A stretch of 64,000 nucleotides of DNA from an uncultured Nitrososphaerota archaeon (GTDB lineage Archaea > Thermoproteota > Nitrososphaeria > Nitrososphaerales > Gagatemarchaeaceae): positions 1-64,000 of the forward strand of contig CAWISW010000002.1 of assembly GCA_963838925.1 (NCBI GenBank), written 5' to 3'. The position numbers were made by a program, and so were the translations under genes. Shown piece after piece: positions 1 through 11,446 of this stretch. Positions within the stretch are counted from its first letter, which is position 1; every line of letters starts with the position of its first letter. The notes under the pieces were generated by a model. The model did no database searches. It saw only the letters and a program-made list of their open reading frames with translations, and was not told the DNA's origin.

Positions 1-21
1 GGCCCGACGGGATTCGAACCC
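1..21 (-). other. tRNA 3'-end fragment (T-loop plus 3' acceptor strand), possible att remnant; cut by window edge
   Basis: Reverse complement reads GGGTTCGAATCCCGTCGGGCC. No matching 5' tRNA half (GGGCCCG..., D-arm) is visible in the next ~100 nt. Confidence 0.55.
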
Positions 22-197
22 CGGGGGGTTCGATACCGAGATTCTGAGATTCTGGATTAGCATCGGGTTCCATTGTATCGCCAGTTATGCTGCCTCGCCA
101 TAAAAGCACCACCCTCGGGGACCTGAGTAGCAGCCCAACCTGTGCAGATGTGGGAGACGAATTGGATCGCCCTAAGAGGCGCCGAGGCAACCATGAT

Positions 198-455
198 TGC
201 GACATACATTACCTCACACCCGAGCTCCGCATCATCCCCTTCTGCTCGTTCAACGTCGTCCGAGAGTGGCATCGCGACAAGATTCAGCAAAAGTACGGCC
301 TCCCCATCGAGGCGTGGGAGGCGAAGAACGGCAAGAAGCTCGAGCACGGGCTCTACAGGGGGACCCTGAGGCGCGGCGGACACCACGCGGGCTGCGGGCG
401 CGTCGTGGGCGAGCAGGTCGAGGAAGTCCACATCCAGCCGATCACCGGAACCTGA
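198..455 (+). repeat. Repeat R1: orphan 3' end of radical-SAM tetraether synthase-like gene
   Basis: Encodes [55 protein letters not shown]...EEVHIQPITGT*. No radical-SAM core upstream; homologous to six downstream copies. Confidence 0.85.
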
Positions 456-1008
456 TATCCGCAGAACGTTCCTGCCGAAGGCCTTGCATTACCGACTCCG
501 ATTGGTTGAAACGCGTAGCGACGGCTAGCCGGAGTTGGCCCAGGTGATTGTTCTAAATGATAATCCCTTGAATGTCGACAAATTGTTTTGCAGTATTTGC
601 AATTCGCCAACGAATCTTGCGCAGAATTTATTGAGTTCTTCTCCGCCCATCTGATATTCTACCAATGTCAATGTTGACCACGCGCTGAGAACACTGAATC
701 GTCAACTTGGGCAGTCGCTTGTCTGGTGCTAGGTCTGGTTTCAAAATGGATGAAAGTGGGCGTGCATCAAGAGGCCTTACTGTCGGCTTTAGCACATGTC
801 AAGCTCGGGAAGAGGAACTGCAAAAACTTAGAAAGCATGTACCCGCTCGGACCTCGGCATGGAGGTTCTTCTCGATTCACGCTTGCATCTGGGATTGAAG
901 AGAGCCAGAGACTTACGGTTGGGTGGTTTCGAATTCGTTGTGAATCGAATACGTTAGAATAAGTATAAACATATGGGTAATTATTCGTGAATATGGTAAT
1001 CACCGTTC

Positions 1009-1305
1009 ATGAGACGGACCCGCCGCGCAAAGCGGTCGAAGATGGAAATCTGGGCGTCGATTCTGGATTGTCTTATATCCGAAGAGGCCAGCATGAACCG
1101 GGTCAAGATTTCGGCGAATGTAAACCAAAGAACTGCGAAAGAGAACCTAGACGAGCTGATTTCTAGAAGGTTGGTTCAGACGAGCCAATCGAAGTTCGTA
1201 TACTACTCGATCACCGAGGATGGAATCAAGTGGGTCAAGATCTATAGAAGTTTGATGAAGAACGAGTCGAGGAAAGCAAACGAGCTTCAAGTGGACTTCC
1301 AATGA
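1009..1305 (+). CDS. archaeal winged-helix transcription regulator (HTH_45-like)
   Basis: KRSKMEIWASIL...ANVN...LDELISRRLV...YSITEDG pattern; AT-rich TATA-like region upstream (~960-985). Confidence 0.8.
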   Translation: MRRTRRAKRSKMEIWASILDCLISEEASMNRVKISANVNQRTAKENLDELISRRLVQTSQSKFVYYSITEDGIKWVKIYRSLMKNESRKANELQVDFQ

Positions 1306-1703
1306 CCTGCACTCCGCCGCTCCTGTTTCGTTCAGAATGTCGTGGATCATATTGAACGGAATAGCGAGAATCATTGACCGCGATTACCTTCGATATTCCC
1401 AACGAAGCAAACGAAAGGCTGGACGCGCGTTCCGACTGTAGGCAGCTTCGTAGTCAGTCCTCGGCGGCGAACCACAATCTTGTTTTTCGCCACCTCAACC
1501 ACATTCATTCCAGGCGATACATGGTGTCGGTCGGGAATGGGTGCGGGACGGGTGATACTTCGGCTCCTGTCGTCAAGATTTGAGGGTTAGCAGCCGGAAG
1601 CTCGACGACTGATGCGGCTCCTTCGACGCGATAGAGGTGATTTCCTGCATCGAATTCAAGGAAGGTGCCGAGAGATGCTCTTGATACACGAATTCATGCT
1701 CTC

Positions 1704-2117
1704 TTACGGAGTATCGCTGAAGCTCTTGACCGTCTCATAGACGGAAATTGAGAGCGCGACCATATAGACCGAAAGAGAGAATAGGAAAGTTGAATTGATG
1801 TTAATTGGCCTCAGAATCGTGATTAGGACTAGTAGCGCTGCGCCGAAGAAAGCCGTAGCAGTGGTCCATAATGGAATCACAGTTCTCCTAATCCTTAACA
1901 TCGATTCGAAGAAGATCCTATCGACAGCGAAACCGTCGCCTTCCTGTCGAATCAAACCCATGCGGACGAGCTTCTGCACATGGTAATCGCTAACAGATGG
2001 GGAGCTAAGTCCGAGGCCACTTTGAATGTCCCTCAACCGAACGGGACCATTGCGATAGATGAACCGATAGACGCGACGCGTGGTTCCGTTGAGAACATCG
2101 CGTGAGGAATTCGTCAT
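1704..2117 (-). CDS. membrane-anchored winged-helix regulator
   Basis: N-terminal wHTH (GTTRRVYRFIY...RDIQSGLGLSSPSVSDYHVQKL) followed by two hydrophobic helices. Confidence 0.8.
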   Translation of the reverse strand: MTNSSRDVLNGTTRRVYRFIYRNGPVRLRDIQSGLGLSSPSVSDYHVQKLVRMGLIRQEGDGFAVDRIFFESMLRIRRTVIPLWTTATAFFGAALLVLITILRPININSTFLFSLSVYMVALSISVYETVKSFSDTP

Positions 2118-2355
2118 GTCATCATCTTTCGGTTTGGACCAGTCTAATCAAGGTATTGCGGAAGTTAGATAATGATTAAGAAAAATATTGTTACAGGGCG
2201 ACGTCCGCCGTGTACAAGTGTTTCCAGCCTTGATGCCGTCATTCAATTCTGCGCCGCTAATCTCTGCGCAGACTTCACCGTAAGCTTAGGCCTCACAATA
2301 CGCCGCAAGTGACACAATTATGTGCCACCTGCGGCAGAGTTGAGACTGTCAGTAC

Positions 2356-3561
2356 CTATGTGCCGGCGCTACTGGCCCATGATTCCTGGAACTGACCGCC
2401 GTTGCCTGAGGTCATTCCGCCGACGTCTGTGTTTTGGGTGCCCGAGATGTCTATGACCACTCCGACGCCATGTCCATTGCTCCAATCGGAGTAGGCGCTC
2501 ATGGAGTATACCGCATACAGAGAACATTCTGTGTAGTTGAAAGCTGTGAATTCCGGCAACCCATAGGTGGCTGGGGTGATGATTTCCGAGACGTATGCTG
2601 CGTAGACAGGAGTGAAGGCGATGCTCTCGGGATTGCCAGAGGTGGGTGTGCAAGTCCAGGTTTGGCTGTAGTCAGTGACATACAGGTAGTAGTTATTGCT
2701 CTCCGTACCGTCGTAAATGAGCTCGTTCTCCATGTCTGAGACCATGGTGTTGCCAGCATATGCAGTGTTACCGCATTCTTGGATTGAATTCACTCCGAAT
2801 AGTTCGGTCCAAGCCGTGTACGAGGCTCCACCACCATTCGAGTAGTCGGCCCACACGCCACCTTGAACTATGCAACACTTGTCGGAAGATGAAGTACTGT
2901 TTGTTAGTCCAACCCATGGACTAATGTTGCAGAATGTTGGGCTGGTTTGACAGATGCCTCCTGAAGGAGTTGAAAGAGTCGGCAGTGTATAGTCAGCCTC
3001 TGCCTGGAAGAGTCTCTGAGGCTGCCCGCTGAGGCCAGGGTGATCTATTGCGTATCCAGACCAATCGCAGGGCGAACTTGGACAGCTAGGAGAAATGCCT
3101 GCGTATGCCAAGTTATCGAGGCGCACTTGGGATATCGTAGAGGTAAGTGGATTTTCCACGACTACGAGGTTATACTGCGAACCATTTGTGCTTGTGGCTA
3201 GGAAGTTGACGGCAACGTTTTGGAACGTAACACTGCATTGGGAGTTGAATGTCCAATCGTCGTTTGCTCCTGTGTATTTAGTTACGAAGGCCGCAGAAGT
3301 AGTCTTGAACTCGGCGGAGGTAGCTGCGAGGTCGATGGCACTGTTCAGATTGTAGGGATCTCCTGCGGCTCGTATGTTCTGTTCGATGGCGTGCTCGTTT
3401 GTGCACGATGAACTGGCACTAGAGGAGTCTGCGTGGACCGCCGGTATGGCGGCCGACATGCCTAGAAGGGCGAGCATGAGGACCGACCCAAAAAAAGGTC
3501 CAACTCGCACCGACGCAAGTACAGATTTCGAGGTCAATTTCGTTCTCAGTTTCGATATCAC
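2356..3561 (-). CDS. secreted G1 (eqolisin-like) glutamic peptidase family protein
   Basis: Signal peptide ending AVHA; WSGY, PWVGL, IVQGG (catalytic Gln position), YTAWTELF, YVSE (catalytic Glu position). Confidence 0.65.
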   Translation of the reverse strand: MISKLRTKLTSKSVLASVRVGPFFGSVLMLALLGMSAAIPAVHADSSSASSSCTNEHAIEQNIRAAGDPYNLNSAIDLAATSAEFKTTSAAFVTKYTGANDDWTFNSQCSVTFQNVAVNFLATSTNGSQYNLVVVENPLTSTISQVRLDNLAYAGISPSCPSSPCDWSGYAIDHPGLSGQPQRLFQAEADYTLPTLSTPSGGICQTSPTFCNISPWVGLTNSTSSSDKCCIVQGGVWADYSNGGGASYTAWTELFGVNSIQECGNTAYAGNTMVSDMENELIYDGTESNNYYLYVTDYSQTWTCTPTSGNPESIAFTPVYAAYVSEIITPATYGLPEFTAFNYTECSLYAVYSMSAYSDWSNGHGVGVVIDISGTQNTDVGGMTSGNGGQFQESWASSAGT

Positions 3562-3829
3562 TCGTCTTCAGTGCGTTGTCTAGCTTAATATCACCAGCAG
3601 AATCTTTCATCCCGGTTCTGTTATCCGGGATATCAATTCCCATCTGCTTGCCTAAGCCTGCATGTGCTACCAACCCCGGCTCGCTCTCCCAATAGGTTAT
3701 CGTTTTCCCCGTATGGCTCCTTTGTCCAGCTTAGGAGAACGAACGATAGCGGGCAAGAACTGCAGGAACTTTGAATTAGTCGCCTCAACAAGTTACCTTG
3801 TTCCTAGCGTGGCTATCACTAGTCGATCG

Positions 3830-4426
3830 CTACGCGCATTGACCACTATTGAATGGCGACAAGAAGTTCCATGTCTCGCTGGATATTAGCCAGTCGTCGC
3901 CAGAGCGCACGTAGATGACCTGAAAAGCGACCTTCCCACCATACTCGTTGAACTGGCACTGAGTGAGCGAAGAATTGAGATTCCCGGCGATATTGAAGGT
4001 GCCGTTCAACTGAACAGCATTGCCAACTGGGCTCGCCGAGTCAATCGTGTTGTTGACAAAAAGATCAGTGAACAGCGGAAAAAAACCATCGTACAAAGTC
4101 GAAATGTTTGTTCCTCCTGCATAATGCCCTCCGAAGCCACTGGTCGCCCCTTTCCAAGTCACTGTCGCGTTCGCTAGATATTCAGCTACTAGCGATGAGT
4201 CGTTTCGCGATGCAAAATTCTGCAAATGGCTGAGGTATTCGGCTTCTATTGTCTCCGATGAGGGAATCGTGATAGTACTTGAAGCAGTTGGGGGTGCGTT
4301 TGATGATGGAGTTGTAGTGGCCATAGGGTTTGCGGGAACATAGTAGTTCAATTCAAAGCCCAGCCCGACTGCGACCGCCACAGCGAGTAGAGCTCCTATC
4401 ACGATTCGCCCTTTGTATTCAGACAT
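3830..4426 (-). CDS. membrane-anchored NTF2/SnoaL-like fold protein
   Basis: N-terminal TM helix, Thr/Ser linker, then 'LVAEYLANATVTW...G...W LISSETWNF', typical of NTF2-like folds. Confidence 0.65.
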   Translation of the reverse strand: MSEYKGRIVIGALLAVAVAVGLGFELNYYVPANPMATTTPSSNAPPTASSTITIPSSETIEAEYLSHLQNFASRNDSSLVAEYLANATVTWKGATSGFGGHYAGGTNISTLYDGFFPLFTDLFVNNTIDSASPVGNAVQLNGTFNIAGNLNSSLTQCQFNEYGGKVAFQVIYVRSGDDWLISSETWNFLSPFNSGQCA

Positions 4427-4620
4427 TTGTATCGCCTAAGCTGTATTAACTCTTTCATTTAGTTCTACGGCTTTGAAGACAGTTTCTACGAATTGTTCCG
4501 TAAACTTCAAAAGGTGATTTACAAAATTTGTAAAACACTGGGTAGAATCATTCCGTTTAGGGTTAATCAAAAAAATCGCCTAGGTCTGAACCTCTGGTTG
4601 TGGGCAAAATGCTCGCACGG

Positions 4621-4884
4621 AAGCGCTGCGACATTCACTACCTCACGCCCGACCTCCGCATCATCCCCTTCTGCTCGTTCAACGTCATCCCCGAGTAGTA
4701 CAGGGACAAGATCCACCAGAAGTACGGCCTGCCCATCGAGGCATGGGAAGCGAAGAACGGCAAGAAGCTCGAGGACGGGCTCTACCGTGGCACCCTACGC
4801 AGGGGCGGACACCACGCAGGCTGCGGCTGCGCGGTCGGCGAGCAGGGCGGGGAAGTCCACATCCAGCCTATCACAGGGACGTAG
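4621..4884 (+). repeat. Repeat R2: orphan tetraether synthase-like 3' end (internal TAG at 4696-4698)
   Basis: [86 protein letters not shown]. Confidence 0.85.
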
Positions 4885-4963
4885 AGAAGCAGCCCGACTG
4901 TTAGCGAGCGTCTGGTGTGAGGAAATCTTCAATAGGATACTCTCATTCCTCGATACGCTTACC

Positions 4964-5476
4964 TTGTCAGCTGTCACGACGCCTTCAAGCCAAAGGTTTC
5001 TGCATCTTACGCGGCGCAAGACAATCGGCCTGACGCTAGCCGCCGTGGCGATAATTCTAATCTTCCTGGGCTTCACTTATCAGATTCCAGTCGATCACAT
5101 CAACGAGCGGACTTCGATGCCAGCAGGGCTGATGGCCAACCCCGTCTTCGCGGCCGTTGCCACCAACACAACGGGGAACATCGGGCTCACGTTGCAGAAC
5201 TTCAACTATTCCAGCCCTGATGGCACGACGAAGCTGTCCGCGACCTCGGCAGACGTCACGATCACTATGAGCCCGGTCAACCAGGGCAGCACGAACTTGA
5301 ACCTGACACTCAACTTGAGCGGGGTCAACATCAAGTCCCCGTCTTTCACAGGCACCTTCTCGTCGCTGAAGTTGACCGGATTCGTGATAGTCGACCCCCA
5401 GACCAACCAGCTCGTCCTCTCCCTCGTGGCCTCAACCTCGGTCGCGGGCATCCTTCAAGCTGTCTTGGGAGTTTGA
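4964..5476 (+). CDS. hypothetical membrane-anchored beta-rich protein (cassette cargo)
   Basis: TTG start after R2; TM helix TIGLTLAAVAIILIFLGF, then Thr/Ser/Asn-rich beta-strand pattern. The 5' part of the track ORF is an out-of-frame reading of R2. Confidence 0.7.
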   Translation: MSAVTTPSSQRFLHLTRRKTIGLTLAAVAIILIFLGFTYQIPVDHINERTSMPAGLMANPVFAAVATNTTGNIGLTLQNFNYSSPDGTTKLSATSADVTITMSPVNQGSTNLNLTLNLSGVNIKSPSFTGTFSSLKLTGFVIVDPQTNQLVLSLVASTSVAGILQAVLGV

Positions 5477-5548
5477 TTCTGCAGGGGCATCCGTAACTGT
5501 CCCGGTCGAACCGCCGTTTTCAGGCCAGAAAGAATGTTAGAGGAAACG

Positions 5549-5587
5549 GGTGAGGATTTCCACATCCAGCCGATCACGAGAACCTAG
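5549..5587 (+). repeat. Repeat R3 (short, degenerate Tes 3' end)
   Basis: ggtgaggatttccacatccagccgatcacgagaacctag = GEDFHIQPITRT*. Confidence 0.8.
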
Positions 5588-5601
5588 ACGAATCTTAGGG
5601 C

Positions 5602-5846
5602 TCATTCAGAGGGAGCGCGGCGGATGTTCTTCAGCGCTTCTTCCACATCGTTTAGTGCTACGATTTCCTGGCCAAACAGCTCAGTGGTGCGGTCCCATGC
5701 GACCAGAGCACGGTTGATTATCACGGGCCGAAGTTCCTCCAGAATGACCCGCAGTCTGTTCGCATCGTTCAGCGTTTCGGCCAATTCTTGATTGCCTTAT
5801 CTGCGCGAGACTCGATGTACTCCCTCCATCTTACGGGGTCTTTCAT
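5602..5846 (-). pseudogene. small helical orphan ORF, possibly frameshifted
   Basis: ATG at 5846 (MKDPVRWREYIESRADKAIK) overlaps out of frame with the 60-aa ORF 5602-5784. Confidence 0.35.
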
Positions 5847-5990
5847 TAGGCAATCTAGTTTCCTCATCACTTCCTCGTCCTCCGTCTGGCCTGCCTTCAA
5901 CGCAACAACATTGTTCCCGCTTCCTTAAAGACTCTGCTCTGGCCTGGAAGTATTTGTCGTAGAGCTCCGCGAAACTGATTTCATCGGCCG

Positions 5991-6044
5991 GCCGTCAGCG
6001 AGCAGGGCGAGGAAGTCCACATCCAACCGATTACAGGAACCTAG
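5991..6044 (+). repeat. Repeat R4
   Basis: gccgtcagcgagcagggcgaggaagtccacatccaaccgattacaggaacctag = AVSEQGEEVHIQPITGT*. Confidence 0.85.
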
Positions 6045-6143
6045 CTCCCTGAAGCTAGCCTCAATAGCCAGCAACGCCCTACCATTCGACGAGAGATGCC
6101 GCCAGTGGGCATCTAGGCTTATATCGCCGGGCCTGCTTATTGG

Positions 6144-6434
6144 TTGACTTGGATGGCTCGAGAAGTGAAGGCCATGGGAGTAGACCCAATCGAACGGGCT
6201 CTCAACGCACGTATCTTCAAGAAACTAGGCGTATCGCCGCAGTCCAGGTGGGCGAAGGACTACACCGAGATGATGCGGCGGCCGCTGACGGCGGAAGAGT
6301 GGCGGAACTTCGAGGAGAATGTTCTGAACGACCCGAAGAAGCTGGACGAATGGGTTGACCGGGTGATTGCTGGATGGACCGGGAGAACGTCGACAGGCTC
6401 AAGAAAGCGCTTGACGGCGTCCAAGAGTCGCTGA
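6144..6434 (+). CDS. hypothetical protein (cassette cargo)
   Basis: 96-aa ORF with protein-like composition; TATA-like 'cttatat' ~25 nt upstream. Confidence 0.5.
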   Translation: MTWMAREVKAMGVDPIERALNARIFKKLGVSPQSRWAKDYTEMMRRPLTAEEWRNFEENVLNDPKKLDEWVDRVIAGWTGRTSTGSRKRLTASKSR

Positions 6435-6563
6435 CTCGAAGGATTCCTGTGGTCGCGGTCAGAAGTCCAGAGAACCTCGCGGAAGAGGTGGCTGCGCTAA
6501 ATGCTCTTCTCGAGTTGAAGATGAAACTGAGTCTCCTTTCGTGAACCCATCCTCCTTACCACA

Positions 6564-6630
6564 GGCATCGGATGCGCTGTGGGCGAGCAGGGCGAGGAAG
6601 TTCCACATCCAGCCGATCACCGGAACCTAG
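6564..6630 (+). repeat. Repeat R5 (1-nt insertion)
   Basis: ggcatcggatgcgctgtgggcgagcagggcgaggaagttccacatccagccgatcaccggaacctag. Confidence 0.85.
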
Positions 6631-6634
6631 GGGA

Positions 6635-6988
6635 TCAGCGAGCCTGTCGATCCGGCGCGAGGTCGAGGGCTTCTTTCTGGGCTCCCAAAGCCACATCGTC
6701 CTCGCCTGCGCCCTTCACATGGGCACAGCCTCTGCGTCCCGATTGTCCGAGGAACTTTGACCGATAACCGGACATCCTCGCCATCAGCAGATTGAGTTCT
6801 GTGGTTTCCTGCCCTGCTGCGTCCATGTCCTGCCTTAAGCAATCGAGGATGTCCAGCAGTATCACGACTCTCTTCACCTGAGAGTCTTGCAGCACATACT
6901 CGTCAATCAGTCCTCTTATCGCCGCCGATGAGGGCCACTGAGCGGTCGCTCTGATAATCCCGTCAGCCACTTCTTTGGTGTTCACCAA
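6635..6988 (-). CDS. hypothetical helical protein (cassette cargo)
   Basis: 117-aa ORF with amphipathic helices; ends 4 nt from R5. Confidence 0.45.
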   Translation of the reverse strand: MVNTKEVADGIIRATAQWPSSAAIRGLIDEYVLQDSQVKRVVILLDILDCLRQDMDAAGQETTELNLLMARMSGYRSKFLGQSGRRGCAHVKGAGEDDVALGAQKEALDLAPDRQAR

Positions 6989-7144
6989 ATGCCTTCACGG
7001 CTGCCTGCGATTGCCTCCGATTGCAGAGTTGGTGGCACCTGTCTTACTTAAGGGGAGGACATGATTCTCTCGATTGGGAATGAGGTTTTCACGAGTGAGA
7101 ATCGTCCACTCGTCTTATAGGCCGGCGCGCAGTTCCGTGTTGCC

Positions 7145-7252
7145 ATGGGCAAGCGTCCAATCCTTCCAGACGTTTTCGAGGACTGGATTGAGAAGCAGAA
7201 GGTCAAGCCAGTGAAGGCGAAGCCTGGTTTCGTAGCCGAAGAGAAGATCTAG
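7145..7252 (+). CDS. putative 35-aa small protein
   Basis: MGKRPILPDVFEDWIEKQKVKPVKAKPGFVAEEKI*; 'cttata' box ~30 nt upstream; below the ORF-track cutoff. Confidence 0.35.
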   Translation: MGKRPILPDVFEDWIEKQKVKPVKAKPGFVAEEKI

Positions 7253-7307
7253 CCAGGCTCAAGGCTTGCAAGTAACCGCCAGGACCCTCCGGTAGACCCG
7301 TCGCTGC

Positions 7308-7952
7308 TCATCTCTTCCACGCCTTCATCTCGCTCTTCGCCAGACGGTGAGACTCCAGCATCAACTTGAGACAGGTGGGGCTGTGCTCTCGCATCAGAGC
7401 CTCGAGATCCTCGACACTGACGGAGTAGCCCGGGCTCCAGTACTCCTTGGTGCCATCCCCCGCCTCGAACCCTACGACCTCTCCATCAAGGATTATCCTG
7501 CGAATCGGGCCATCGCCGCCCTCGACAGTTCCCACAAGCATCGACTTCGCGATCCCGACGCTCGGGATTCCCAGAACCATTCCGCATATGGTCGCAAGAC
7601 CCGCGGAGCGCGGATGCGCAGCCCCATGCGCGTCGAAACATACGATTTGAGGACGAACCGTGAGCCTGTTCACCGCCTCCGTCGCGAAGGGGCCCTCGTG
7701 CAAGTAGAACAACCCTGGCGAGTAGGGGAAGTTGAAGTGGCCGGTGTAGACGCTGTGCTCAACGATCCGTCCGTCCACGGCTTCGGTTGCCACCGCAGCC
7801 ACCCTGTCGGAGGAGTATGACGCATCGACAGCGCATATCCTCGAGACCCGCTTTGGTACGGCCTTCGCCCTTGCGCGAAGGAGCGTTTGCAATCTGGCGA
7901 AGAACGCAGCTTCTGCTCCATCGACATCTTCATGACTTCGCAAGTTTTCCAC
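7308..7952 (-). CDS. nfi: endonuclease V
   Basis: VDASYS, PYSPGLFYLHE wedge, FDAHGAAHPR, GIAKS motifs. Confidence 0.9.
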   Translation of the reverse strand: MENLRSHEDVDGAEAAFFARLQTLLRARAKAVPKRVSRICAVDASYSSDRVAAVATEAVDGRIVEHSVYTGHFNFPYSPGLFYLHEGPFATEAVNRLTVRPQIVCFDAHGAAHPRSAGLATICGMVLGIPSVGIAKSMLVGTVEGGDGPIRRIILDGEVVGFEAGDGTKEYWSPGYSVSVEDLEALMREHSPTCLKLMLESHRLAKSEMKAWKR

Positions 7953-7989
7953 GCACAGGACTTCTCAGTCCTTAATTGGCATATGCCCA

Positions 7990-8075
7990 AGGCGGTCGAC
8001 ACCACGTGGGTTGTGGGTGCGCGGTCGGCCAGCAGGGCGGGGAGGTCCACCAACAGCCGACTACCGGAGCTCTAG
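7990..8075 (+). repeat. Repeat R6 (degenerate)
   Basis: ...caccacgtgggttgtgggtgcgcggtcggccagcagggcggggaggtccaccaacagccgactaccggagctctag = HHVGCGCAVGQQGGEVHQQPTTG. Confidence 0.8.
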
Positions 8076-8218
8076 AGTCAAGCCGGTGGCCGAAGGTCCT
8101 AGCTCGCCCGCCTCTCTCCTGCCTCTCGTTGCCGTCGTCCCAGCGGAACGTGTGACCAACGCGAACGCGGCCGTGCGATGTTGACAGTGTAAATAGCGCC
8201 TCCTTGGAGCACGGCGTC

Positions 8219-8914
8219 ATGAACCGATTCATCGCTGTGTGGGGGGCCATCGTGACAGTTGGGGGAGTCGTCATGTGGCTGCTCTTGCAAGGTCTCTACT
8301 CAGTGAACTTTTTCATGATGGGGTTCTACATCCCTCCTGCGCAGACCGTTGCGGAGGGAACCACGTTCGCCGGGATTCTTCTGCTCCTGGCGAGTCTCGT
8401 ATCCGAGTGGCCGAGGTATGCCGAGGTGAGCAATGAGACCGCTGCAAGATACTTCGGTTGGGCAGCGCTGGTCAACGCGCTGGCTGCCGCCGTCTTCACC
8501 GTCCCAATGCTCGTGCCTTCTCTCGAGTTTCCGATACTGATCGCTGAATGGCCTGGGATCTATCTCGTCATAGCGTACGCCTTCTTCATCATCTTCGGAG
8601 TGATCGGGATGCTCGGCTGGAGCGTGATGTACTCCTTCATGCCTACGTTCTTCTCAAAGGAATGGGTCGACCGGCGCTCGGTCATCCTTCAGCTACTGCT
8701 GTCTGAGGTCGGGATCTACGTCGCGTCCACCTTCCTCTTCATCGCCGGATTCAGAGGTGCTTCGCTCGTCCACGACGGCAACGCTGGCTATGCCGTCGTA
8801 GGAGCAACGATGGAGATTGCCGACCTGCCCTCGGCCGTGGCGATATTCGTGATAATCGTTAGCGTCTTCCTGGGGGCCTTGAACATATTGCGACGGAGCG
8901 GTCCTGAGCACTAG
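8219..8914 (+). CDS. polytopic membrane protein (~6 TM), cassette cargo
   Basis: Long hydrophobic ORF; 'taaata' box ~25 nt upstream of ATG 8219. Confidence 0.8.
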   Translation: MNRFIAVWGAIVTVGGVVMWLLLQGLYSVNFFMMGFYIPPAQTVAEGTTFAGILLLLASLVSEWPRYAEVSNETAARYFGWAALVNALAAAVFTVPMLVPSLEFPILIAEWPGIYLVIAYAFFIIFGVIGMLGWSVMYSFMPTFFSKEWVDRRSVILQLLLSEVGIYVASTFLFIAGFRGASLVHDGNAGYAVVGATMEIADLPSAVAIFVIIVSVFLGALNILRRSGPEH

Positions 8915-8931
8915 ACGTCCGAGCGCATGCG

Positions 8932-8979
8932 AGCGAGCAGGGCGGGGAAGTCCACATCCAGCCCATCACCGGAATCTGG
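8932..8979 (+). repeat. Repeat R7 (stop codon decayed to TGG)
   Basis: agcgagcagggcggggaagtccacatccagcccatcaccggaatctgg = SEQGGEVHIQPITGI. Confidence 0.85.
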
Positions 8980-9129
8980 TTTGGAACAAGAGGCGGGGAC
9001 CTGGGTTCTTCGGCCCGTTCCCTCCGTCATCTTTGACTCCCCTGGGGGAAGCCACAAGCGGGCATGATGGAAGCTTGCTCTCTCGTTTCCGGTCGAGTTT
9101 CAAGAGCCCAGCATGAGGCTGCTGGTCGC

Positions 9130-9624
9130 CTAACCGTTGCCCTTGGCCTGGATCAGCCTCTTCTCGAAGCAGACGCTCATCTCGCTTTCGGCGTGCTTCC
9201 CGTAGTTCTTGATGCGGTGGTAGCCCAGCTTCTCATACAGGGCGATTGCCTCCGGCTGACGGACCCCGGTCTCCAACCGGGCGACCTCGTATCCGCGCTC
9301 TCGCGCGATACGCTCCAGTTCCCCCATAACGACCTTGGAGTAGCCTCTCCCTCGAAACTCAGTCTCAACGAAGATCCTCTTCAGCTCCGCGACGCCTTCA
9401 TCCAGACGGCGGATCGCGCCGCAGGCCACAGGGCGCCCGCCGCTCCGCCCGATCACGAACGCTCCCTTCGGGCCGAGCACGTCCTCCGGCGCAAAGTCTC
9501 CCGACCCGTCCTCCATGTAGTCGTACCTGCGCGCCAGCTCGGCGGAGAGTTCGCGGATGAGCTTGGCTGCCTCCGCGCTTCGGGGGTCGGCCGCCTCCAC
9601 CGTGAACGCGTCCCCGGTCATCAT
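9130..9624 (-). CDS. GNAT family N-acetyltransferase
   Basis: AELKRIFV..FRGRGYS..LETGVRQPEAIALYEKLGY. Confidence 0.9.
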   Translation of the reverse strand: MMTGDAFTVEAADPRSAEAAKLIRELSAELARRYDYMEDGSGDFAPEDVLGPKGAFVIGRSGGRPVACGAIRRLDEGVAELKRIFVETEFRGRGYSKVVMGELERIARERGYEVARLETGVRQPEAIALYEKLGYHRIKNYGKHAESEMSVCFEKRLIQAKGNG

Positions 9625-9867
9625 GACTTCGTACGGGAGTGTGGCTTTAACGGTTGGGTCGGCTCGAGGACCCAGTCGGACTCCATCGCCCCTTACGCGT
9701 TGCTCCAATCCCGTTATAGGGAGGAGCAGGACGCTGGGTGCTGAGACCGATGCTGTGCTACTGTGGAAGGCATCTCTCGCGGGGCGAGGAAGGTCTGCTG
9801 GTCTGCGCCACCTGCAAGCTTCCTCCTCCAAGGTGCAGGTGCCTCCCGTTGGGTGTGGGCTGAGGGG

Positions 9868-10338
9868 CTACATGACGACCCGGTAGTCGTCTTCTATCCT
9901 GACGATGTCGGCTTCGTCGAAGTGGCCCTTCGAGACCTCCAGGATGTCGGCGCTCTCTTCGTCACACCCGAGGCGATGAACCATCATCTGAGGGACGACG
10001 ACGTGCGAGTCCTTTTCGAGCGGAACCTTTTCGAGAAGCTGGCCACGCTTTAGAATCGCGTAGGCTCGTCCCTTGAGGCAGTACCACTCCTCGGTGCGGT
10101 GGCGGTGGTATTGCAGACTCAGACGCGACCTCGCATAGACGTGAATGATCTTCACGGTCAGCGGTTCGCCGGGATTGTGCTGAAGGAGCTCTCCCGTCGG
10201 GTGGTAGATCGGTTCGAGCTCGGAGAGAAAGCCTGCTAGCCAGGAGGGGGACGGAGCTTCGTCCTCAAGGAAGAGTGAGAAGAAGCCCCAAGGGCGTCGC
10301 TCAACCCTGATGGGCGTGGAGAGAATCGAGGATTTCAA
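9868..10338 (-). CDS. mannose-6-phosphate isomerase-like cupin
   Basis: RPWG, RLSLQYHRHRTEEW, HRL, DIVRIEDDY motifs. Confidence 0.85.
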   Translation of the reverse strand: MKSSILSTPIRVERRPWGFFSLFLEDEAPSPSWLAGFLSELEPIYHPTGELLQHNPGEPLTVKIIHVYARSRLSLQYHRHRTEEWYCLKGRAYAILKRGQLLEKVPLEKDSHVVVPQMMVHRLGCDEESADILEVSKGHFDEADIVRIEDDYRVVM

Positions 10339-10402
10339 AACTGAGTGGGATCCTCTGCTGCGACCTACGGGGGATTGGAGCTTAAAACCGTTTGAGGAAG
10401 CC

Positions 10403-11446
10403 CTAGCCTTCTGAGACGAGCTCCGTAATTGCTTCCATGAGGACTCCTTTCGCCACATCCACCTTGTAGGCGTTGTTCTGGAGAGGGGTCGCGGCAGAAA
10501 GGGCTGGAGCTGCCGCCTGTCCGGGCGCCAGCGTCGAGAGATCGCTGCCGTTCAGCACCGCCTCGACCCCGGCATCCCTGTACGGTGCTGGGGCGACCCC
10601 TCCGAACACCACCCTGGAGTCTCTTACGGTGCCTCCGTCAAGGGTGACGGTCACCGCCACGCTGGCTATGGCGAAATCTAGCGCGTTCCTTATCCTTGAC
10701 TTTACGAAGACCGATCGGAAGGCTTGCGGCGACGGAGGGACTTTGACAGCCGTCACGAGCTCCGACGGAGAGAGGATGTGAGACTGGAGGACGTCTCCCA
10801 TCCACACGTTCCCCGGGATGAACTCGCTCACGCTCACCGTCTTCGTCCCGTATTGCCCTGCTATCACGACTGAAGCGCCCAGCGCCTCGAGCGCCACCGC
10901 GAGGTCGGAGGGATGCGCGGCGTAGCAGTCGTTCCCTCCCATCACGCTGTGGTAGTACCTGTTGTCCGCCCCTTCCTGTATGGCGTAGCAGGTGCTGCCA
11001 CCAGCCCTCCACGTCTTGAAGCCGTTGCGCAGAAACCAGCACCAGACCTGTTGGGTCAGCGCACCTCCGACCGTCGCCACGTTTCGCACCTGGGGCGCCG
11101 ATATTAGGCCCGCAGCCTGTGCCAGCAATGGGTAGTTCTCGGCGATGACAGCGGAGCTCTCCACCTCGCTCAGGGTGGTCAGCGCCCCCATCGACAAGCC
11201 CTTCGTCCCGTCGAAGTCGAGGAAGCGGATCTCCCCCACCCCCTTGATGTCGACGATCACCTCGGGGTATTCCACCATCGCGTCTCGCTTCATGAGGTGA
11301 AGCAGGTCCGAGCCTCCAGCGATCACCTTCGCCTTTCCCCCGTACTTTCCCAACACCGCCACCGCGTCTGCGACGGTGAGGGGAGTCACGTAGCTGAACC
11401 CGGGTAGCGACCTGGGGTTGAGACCAGGGAGGAGCCCGCTCGACGT
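10403..11446 (-). CDS. xanthine dehydrogenase-family FAD-binding subunit (PaoB-like); start uncertain
   Basis: IAGGSDLL, QVRNVATVGG, AHPSDLAVAL, NAYK motifs. Confidence 0.88.
   Translation of the reverse strand, partial: TSSGLLPGLNPRSLPGFSYVTPLTVADAVAVLGKYGGKAKVIAGGSDLLHLMKRDAMVEYPEVIVDIKGVGEIRFLDFDGTKGLSMGALTTLSEVESSAVIAENYPLLAQAAGLISAPQVRNVATVGGALTQQVWCWFLRNGFKTWRAGGSTCYAIQEGADNRYYHSVMGGNDCYAAHPSDLAVALEALGASVVIAGQYGTKTVSVSEFIPGNVWMGDVLQSHILSPSELVTAVKVPPSPQAFRSVFVKSRIRNALDFAIASVAVTVTLDGGTVRDSRVVFGGVAPAPYRDAGVEAVLNGSDLSTLAPGQAAAPALSAATPLQNNAYKVDVAKGVLMEAITELVSEG

Follow-up and report, generated by a model that had tools for sequence, protein, structure and literature searches.

Repeated 3′ ends of a tetraether lipid synthase gene and the cassette array they may record in an uncultured soil archaeon

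Why do the last codons of a single gene recur again and again at one end of an archaeal contig, each time followed by different DNA? This question is raised by contig CAWISW010000002.1 (hereafter C2) of an uncultured Nitrososphaerota archaeon (GenBank assembly GCA_963838925.1), of which we analyzed bases 1–64000, hereafter the window. The window carries seven copies of what alignment identifies as the 3′ end of tes, the archaeal membrane-lipid gene that encodes tetraether lipid synthase. All seven lie on the plus strand, the last ends at 8977, and low-GC cassettes of 0.4–4.2 kb stand between them. We consider it likely (probability roughly 0.7) that 198–8977 represents the distal part of an array that has grown behind the 3′ end of tes, and that the copies are former working ends cut off by incoming DNA. 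An earlier, sequence-only reading had focused on the two longest copies, R1 (198–455) and R2 (4622–4884), and proposed that each had been the functional end of a different allele.

Selection and decay in the copied gene ends

The assignment to tes was made by way of a relative. A 557-aa orthologue in the related genome G012 matches the NCBIfam Tes model NF045702 with 690 bits (cut-off 450; 1e-207), and the window copies match residues 471–557 of this protein at 87–94%. The model ends at residue 508, and the last ~49 residues are assigned by orthologue alignment only. On these alignments, we assign the window repeats as displaced 3′ ends of tes, and positions within them are given on a scale of 1–330, the last 330 bases of tes as in the 557-aa gene of related genomes. 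The body of the gene is missing. Residues 1 to ~460 of the relative’s Tes have no match in any of the three contigs of the assembly (1.84 Mb, 87% complete), and the region upstream of tes in G012 and in a second relative, G007, is largely without a match in it. The earlier reading had assumed an intact resident gene; there is none in the window or in the three contigs. NCBIfam also holds a separate model for intein-containing Tes, which stays below its cut-off here; in other archaea, then, tes is a known host of selfish elements that bear endonucleases.

Differences between R1 and R2 had been described as mainly synonymous, and this description was accurate. The codons quoted for the two copies are present as written, the short copies vary at third positions as claimed, and an ungapped comparison of R1 (198–455) with R2 (4627–4884) gives 217 of 258 identical bases, with the 41 differences distributed 8/6/27 over codon positions 1, 2, and 3. 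The claim that the peptide is the same holds for the quoted stretches but not overall, as 74 of 85 residues are equal and R2 has an in-frame TAG at 4696–4698. By the Nei–Gojobori method, 84 codons yield 24 synonymous and 14 non-synonymous differences, a synonymous divergence (dS) of 0.615, a non-synonymous divergence (dN) of 0.076, and a dN/dS of 0.12. Random change would be expected to produce 77% replacements, whereas 14 of 38 were observed (binomial p = 1.1e-7 for 14 or fewer).

The same ratio was computed, as the sequence-only reading had proposed, among copies and intact genes, and it was not near 1. For the four long copies in the genome (R1, R2, and two on a second contig, C3), all six pairs fall at dN/dS 0.07–0.12 and dS 0.58–0.90. 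For comparison, the medians for 45 pairs of intact tes genes, drawn from ten genomes, are 0.081 for dN/dS (range 0.03–0.19) and 1.13 for dS. The matching ratios and the high dS indicate that the copies are as divergent as tes is between species of the genus, and that the constraint on them has been equal.

Changes private to one sequence show a different pattern. Ten intact genes carry 17 silent and 4 replacement changes of this kind, and 11 displaced copies carry 22 silent and 44 replacement changes plus two stops (Fisher p = 2.7e-4). R1 contributes seven replacements and one silent change, and it has lost a conserved Cys that is kept in 10 of 10 aligned intact relatives. A shared purifying signature together with replacement-biased private changes indicates that the tails were first under selection and decayed later. 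R1 and R2 thus once served as working ends in different versions of the gene and are now decaying dead DNA, as had been proposed from the sequence. The nearest known sequence to R1 is at 87.6%. R2 comes closest to one of the displaced tails of metagenome contig L143 (93.1% over positions 73–290), and next to intact genes at 90.8%.

Arrays, foreign tails, and traveling cassettes

Displaced copies also stand behind intact tes genes in G012 (seven), in contig C10 of G018 (five), and in G007, G015, G016, and G020 (one or two each). Two more genomes, G014 (seven copies) and G009 (two), have arrays whose first copy either runs into a contig end or is open over a short frame only. Genome loci picked by the tail alone have extra copies within 10 kb in 7 of 79 cases, all but one in the genus of the window’s organism (Candidatus Gagatemarchaeum, to which the relative G001 also belongs). 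Metagenome loci have two or more copies in 15 of 78 cases, with a maximum of 10 in L143. After duplicate records were removed, the total came to 83 displaced copies in 32 loci. Cargo in the relatives’ arrays includes regulators, secreted proteins, toxin–antitoxin pairs, restriction genes, and transporters. The G018 bin holds three full tes genes (on C7, C10, and C14) that each have an array, with those on C10 and C14 ~4% apart; three tes genes and a contamination of 9% suggest that this bin probably mixes strains.

Base 1 of the window is base 1 of C2, that is, the contig end falls inside the tail array. Host DNA runs from base 9130 onward, with genes for a GNAT acetyltransferase and a cupin (9130–10458, minus strand) and for a molybdenum hydroxylase. 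In G012, G018, and G020, the GNAT/cupin flank bounds the tes array at its far side; in the array-free G008, it lies downstream of tes. This synteny and the contig start inside the array place the window at the far end of the array, with the gene and the near end in an assembly gap. Among 100 distinct intact genes, those of the array-bearing clade end in GEE(V/I)HIQPITGT and most others in EPLPIQPITGT. Homology between genomes stops right behind the tes stop codon even at array-free loci, so this spot is variable across the whole family.

Evidence that the end of a working gene can be exchanged comes from the intact tes of metagenome locus L147. Its body is nearest clade A (92.1% to L135 over 600 bases), whereas positions 73–290 are nearest the clade-B gene of G009 (87.2%), and no clade-A tail occurs among the five nearest, the fifth being at 80.7%. 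Against L135, 45 of 573 body bases and 45 of 218 tail bases differ (p = 2e-6), with an excess that sets in ~270 bases ahead of the stop and wanes over the last 60. We read L147 as a functional tes with a foreign tail, showing tail replacement directly. A weaker excess was found between L133 and G012, which differ at 59 of 330 bases in the tes end and at 116 of 1344 in the body (p = 4.6e-6).

Cassettes also move. Cassette X of the window (6045–6568, plus strand; open reading frames [ORFs] 6144–6434 and 6374–6544) lies between tails but beside other neighbors in G020 (91.7%), L143 (88.5%), and L193 (90.9%), and it occurs without tails in L140 (80.7%). A 280-aa cassette common to G012 and G014 has cargo that is 85–96% identical, while the right-hand tails are 79–80% identical and each belongs to its host’s own clade. 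The endonuclease V gene of another window cassette (6631–7999) was also found behind tes in contig L138.

Four further tails lie on contig C3, at 441344–441600, 470440–470566, 473794–473897, and 489234–489518. They stand in or at the edge of low-GC islands, amid the host genes ilvC, ilvD, and Lhr helicase, and a tRNA-Ser gene marks the end of one tail-bearing island. The copy at 489234 lacks a stop codon, and its homology breaks off at ~317, as in the first displaced copy of G012. Genes flanking the C3 region are 35–55 kb apart in four relatives; they are at least 145 kb from tes in G007, G015, and G018 and on another contig in G009. The C3 tails are therefore not at the tes locus, and foreign DNA carries tails with it. 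For the cargo between R1 and R2, no close relative turned up in the 97 family genomes, the metagenome scan, or the fetched loci. The family genomes hold only distant homologues (at most 39%), none of them near tes, and a metagenome scan with the 401-aa cargo protein found it in 0 of 64. The elements of the window and of C3 were considered as one family and rejected as such, as their common proteins are only distantly related (28–53%).

These results bear on a further proposal of the sequence-only reading, namely that a donor’s gene end plus cargo replaces the resident C-terminus and displaces the old tail downstream. Replacement (L147), mobile cassettes, and tails at a locus other than tes speak for it in outline. 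The parts that did not find such support are the arrival of each tail with its adjacent cargo, the side concerned, and the enzyme.

Within the window, the copies comprise the last 13–87 codons of tes, and spacer GC is 45–57% compared to 61.6% for C2. R1 consists of the last 85 codons and TGA (positions 73–330; tblastn 100/87%; blastn 85.5% to the G012 tes end). Cassette 1 (456–4621, GC 45–53%) follows with four genes, none for a recombinase: a winged-helix HTH_45 protein (1009–1305, plus strand) and, on the minus strand, a winged-helix protein with a membrane tail (1704–2117) and secreted proteins of 401 aa (2356–3561) and 198 aa (3830–4426). R2 (positions 68–330) is followed by cassette 2 (4885–5547, plus strand), which encodes a 187-aa membrane protein (4913–5476) with a 78% identical paralogue at C3:655207–655734. 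The short copies start at positions 256–291 and run to about the stop codon. They lie at 5548–5587 (positions 291–330), 5991–6044 (277–330), and 6569–6630 (270–330, with one extra base in the core), the second and third on either side of cassette X. The extra base, at 6601, is missing from some short-read contigs of two runs, indicating that both forms exist in the soil population. Next come the cassette at 6631–7999 (minus strand), with a 117-aa ORF (6635–6988) and the endonuclease V gene (7308–7952; Pfam PF04493, 3.6e-29), a degenerate tail at 8000–8070 (from position 256, with the reading of the last codons lost), a cassette at 8071–8932 (plus strand) with a 236-aa membrane protein (8204–8914), and the last tail at 8933–8977 (positions 284–328), whose stop codon is lost.

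Read support was assessed by mapping contigs of three runs from one study, at low depth, to 1–9200. The junctions R1/cargo, cargo/R2, and R2/next cassette are crossed by short-read contigs of two runs with 0 differences; these runs possibly come from the window’s own sample. Spanning contigs cover 290–712, 4249–4677, 4839–5415, 5411–6027, and 6377–6706. One joint is out of register (419 to 4683, one contig, side 31), and the remainder are alternative flanks. The contigs of the three runs gave no evidence of a circle or of excision over 1–9200. Rfam had no match on 1–9200 at E up to 1, and ARAGORN found no tRNA in the window. At the very start (window 1–70), the first ~26 bases resemble, on the minus strand, the 3′ end of a tRNA (T-loop TTCGAAT and acceptor strand), with no ARAGORN or Rfam call. 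The first 15 bases recur at C3:13594–13608, beside the genome’s only tyrosine recombinase gene (C3:13943–14476).

Possible engines and rival explanations

Where the copies begin and end gives some indication of how the exchange may work. Starts of the 83 displaced copies fall at positions 40–56 (17 copies), 68–75 (4), 256–293 (46), or elsewhere between 106 and 254 (16), with none after 293, and ends fall at 326 or beyond (66), at 312–325 (14), or earlier (3). As 80 of the 83 reach at least 312 and none starts after 293, they have in common a core of ~20 nt near the stop. Several copies lose homology right behind a shared stretch of ~20 bases that comprises GAAGTCCACATCCAGCC and the few bases preceding it. 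Exchange therefore appears to be centered on this core, ~15–35 bases before the stop codon, with a left limit probably near 40–75 for long tails or 256–293 for short ones. By a measure of silent-site uniformity, the seven core codons of 22 distinct intact genes from the array-bearing clade score 0.41 (more uniform) vs. 0.56 for the rest of the tail, and the reverse was seen in 78 genes of other clades with a different end peptide (0.89 for the core vs. 0.74 for the rest).

The inserted DNA stands between direct repeats of the target, as expected of integrative elements, but the recombinase gene that should lie inside was not found. A Pfam search of 177 ORFs from the window, C3, seven relatives, and eleven metagenome contigs detected no integrase, resolvase, or transposase, nor did an NCBIfam search of 30 unassigned ORFs. 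In five whole genomes, PF00589 matched tyrosine recombinases only far from tes, the nearest at 58 kb, which also leaves the entry site without an adjacent IntI integrase in these genomes. A scan of viral contigs revealed no free element with a tail among 14 pattern matches.

A different candidate enzyme lies at the same spot in some relatives. The first gene behind tes in contig C10 of G018 encodes 395 residues with two LAGLIDADG motifs; their Asp195 and Asp308 are kept in all 7 sequences compared, and PF14528 matches 6 of these. Its AlphaFold model (pLDDT 78) has I-DmoI as the best Foldseek match (probability 1.00, E 1e-5, TM 0.65 on target), and a sequence profile of the protein found no chain in the PDB. 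The ~395-aa protein is thus like a LAGLIDADG homing endonuclease, with the predicted fold of the monomeric, double-motif enzymes. Of 97 family genomes, 49 hold a homologue. In ten genomes of five genera, the tes stop and the gene are less than 1 kb apart, and in three further genomes of the genus the gene stands inside or just beyond the array. When loci were picked by tes alone and had 1.5 kb or more downstream, the gene started 130–947 bases behind the stop in 16 of 121 and was convergent in all 16; none had it upstream. L133, with its excess of tail change against G012, carries it as well. The simplest array is found in another genus (L220 and L235, that is, C1 of G043) and consists of tes, a convergent endonuclease-like gene, a displaced tail of 176 bases with TAG, and, after another 1.4 kb, a tail of 74 bases. 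Two soil islands behind tes (L140:15257–18828 and L141:2001–5650) carry a three-gene module for a 448/471-aa protein, a 344-aa RadA/RadB-like ATPase, and a 396-aa membrane protein, which adjoins a gene for a HerA/TrwB-like ATPase. This module was considered as an element-borne recombination function and rejected, as it is absent from most arrays.

The process could run as follows. Incoming DNA would recombine into the end of tes, and the old end, cut off from the gene and pushed downstream, would decay. The units inserted would be low-GC cassettes of 0.4–4 kb with one to four genes each. The engine may be a DNA break near the core that is repaired by homologous recombination with the incoming DNA, and a free-standing LAGLIDADG homing endonuclease may make the cut. 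We tentatively favor this engine because no integrase is present, while rating it below even odds. A recombinase acting in trans is possible but doubtful, and homologous recombination without any such aid is unlikely. The complete proposal, in which Ca. Gagatemarchaeum and its kin gain cassettes by integrase-free accretion, with a break near the tes core probably made by the LAGLIDADG homing endonuclease, donor end and cargo copied in, and the old end stranded downstream, is speculative, and we would doubt that all of it holds. If true, it would describe an archaeal counterpart of the integron, with the coding end of an essential lipid gene as the recombination site.

A number of observations weigh against these readings, several of them concerning the enzyme. 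The endonuclease-like gene is absent from the window’s array, and tblastn in the genome found only two distant homologues (C3:45882–46598 and C1:95694–96722), neither of them flanked by repeats in the form of duplicated gene ends. Most arrays of the genus lack the gene, and most loci that have it, in other genera, lack displaced tails. In G018, C10 (with the gene) and C14 (without) differ at 11 of 330 tail bases and 53 of 1344 body bases (p = 0.75), with no tail excess. WhiA regulators share the fold and also appear in the Foldseek list, and the LAGLIDADG-like protein has no known cleavage site. Others concern the exchange itself. Body and tail are equally diverged in 10 intact-gene pairs from five relatives, and a break was seen only once metagenome genes were added, so tail replacement is not general. 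With the resident tes not assembled, no window copy can be compared with it. Right of cassette X, the tails of L143 and L193 share their 5′ part, including two derived bases, but differ at 7 of the last 27 bases and in everything beyond, which places the break inside the core. The G012/G014 cassette fits instead a right-hand tail that was resident and was displaced from its 5′ limit onward. No single position accounts for the left limits, which vary over ranges, and the silent-site uniformity of the core, resting on seven codons, is only a hint. Finally, a tree of 21 tails over 255 bases leaves the window copies in an unresolved fork. The tails had been expected to record donor lineages; such a tree could be built, but it did not place the window copies, and they are weak recorders. 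Its sole outstanding pairing joins C3:489234 with the first displaced copy of G012 (81/87), both of which start at 40–49 and lose homology at ~317.

Ordinary site-specific integration offers another possible, if doubtful, account. Here, elements with an attP site copying the tes end would have been inserted by a tyrosine (or other) recombinase and accreted in tandem, and their recombination genes would then have been lost, or small elements would have been mobilized in trans. An accretion model with cis-mobilizable remnants exists for streptococcal elements. Integration would account for the direct repeats that bound every cassette and for the short core in all but 3 of 83 copies. Tyrosine recombinases do occur elsewhere, with 1–7 matches in four of five genomes, one tail-bearing C3 island ends at a tRNA gene as noted above, and the 3′ end of a conserved gene is the target of 14 of 68 thaumarchaeal elements, for which tandem arrays are known (PMC6563490, in the part of the text available). 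It fits poorly with the lack of a recombinase in any array searched, the nearest PF00589 match being 58 kb off, with tail lengths of 40–290 bases and left limits that vary over ranges, and with the lack of a free tail-bearing element in the viral-contig scan.

The remaining explanations fare much worse. Assembly error, in which tes ends of co-occurring strains were stitched into one contig, could explain why the contig breaks inside the array, why alternative flanks appear as loose ends, and why depth at the tails, to which many variants from the soil sample map, is 5–10 times that of the cargo. We find it very improbable given the junctions spanned without a difference in runs that are possibly the window’s own sample, and given the same architecture in G007, a single-contig genome, and in more than ten other assemblies, which independently argues that the order of parts did not arise by stitching. 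That the copies are kept for a present function, either as spare C-termini for switching the Tes end or as small proteins, is hardly credible. R1 does lie within an ATG-started 122-aa frame (87–455), but the other copies have no in-frame start codon, R2 has an internal stop, 6569–6630 a frameshift, and 8933–8977 a lost stop, and private changes are replacement-biased; moreover, the peptides are near-equal, so switching would change nothing. Least credible is local tandem duplication of the tes end followed by neutral drift, despite copies that are all direct repeats on one strand within 9 kb. The earlier reading had dismissed it, and rightly so. A dN/dS of 0.12 at dS 0.6, with the binomial p given above (1.1e-7), excludes it, and neutral decay is visible only in the private changes of the displaced copies. 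The spacers are also mutually unrelated and of foreign GC, and in other genomes the same cassettes have different neighbors.

Comparison with known systems

If the reading of an array built behind tes is right, its closest setting may be a family of elements from the same phylum. Integrated elements of Thaumarchaeota target the 3′-distal part of protein-coding genes (Krupovic et al. 2019, PMC6563490). As far as the available text of that article goes, the two are alike in using the end of a conserved gene whose frame is restored by element DNA, in the direct repeats at both ends, and in re-use of the site, which yields arrays. They are unlike in that the attachment sites there are short (13 bp in one example), compared to repeats of up to 290 coding bases at tes, and in that the tes arrays consist of mini-cassettes of 0.4–4 kb, up to 10 in a row, without an integrase. 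In the same portion of text, tes is not among the targets named, and “radical SAM” has 0 occurrences. Our literature search returned no paper linking tes with a homing endonuclease and, for tes with integrase, only one methane-seep study, unrelated by its title.

Free-standing homing endonucleases, such as those of the T4 seg and mob genes, spread by intronless homing, with co-conversion of flanking genes. The process is described in PMC2790892. The likeness lies in an endonuclease gene that sits between genes beside a conserved target, is patchy among relatives, and has a neighboring gene end that is foreign, as in L133. By contrast, the phage enzymes are of the GIY-YIG or HNH type and are not known to leave duplicated gene ends or cassette arrays, whereas the protein beside tes is of the LAGLIDADG type, belongs to an archaeal chromosome, is only predicted to cut, and is absent from the window.

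Two further comparisons concern the array itself. In Rhs and CdiA toxin genes, displaced “orphan” C-terminal modules are found. There, as at tes, old ends are pushed downstream by recombination through a conserved stretch of the gene, and the array records past ends. The ends of Rhs and CdiA, however, differ in function (toxin and immunity) and the conserved stretch lies upstream, whereas tes ends encode the same peptide and the novelty is in the cargo. Integrons hold rows of cassettes with one or a few genes, bounded by recombination sites, and depend on an IntI-type integrase and attC hairpins. The tes cassettes likewise stand in rows beside a fixed entry point, with a copy of the site at each, and single cassettes recur in different arrays. 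Unlike integrons, the tes arrays have no IntI-type integrase, their sites are the coding end of a gene, and their ORFs run in both orientations.

Insertion into the end of a conserved gene is therefore known, also in this phylum, and the novelty lies in its form. The repeats are long and coding, the mini-cassettes stand in rows without an integrase in any array searched, and an endonuclease-like gene is associated with the same spot. The long coding repeats keep a readable history of selection, and the rows bring together up to ten mini-cassettes with regulators, secreted proteins, toxin–antitoxin genes, and restriction genes. The arrays explain the assembly breaks at tes in these genomes and offer a means to trace gene flow among uncultured soil archaea. 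Should a homing endonuclease and host repair prove to be the engine, they would represent a new route to variable gene islands in archaea.

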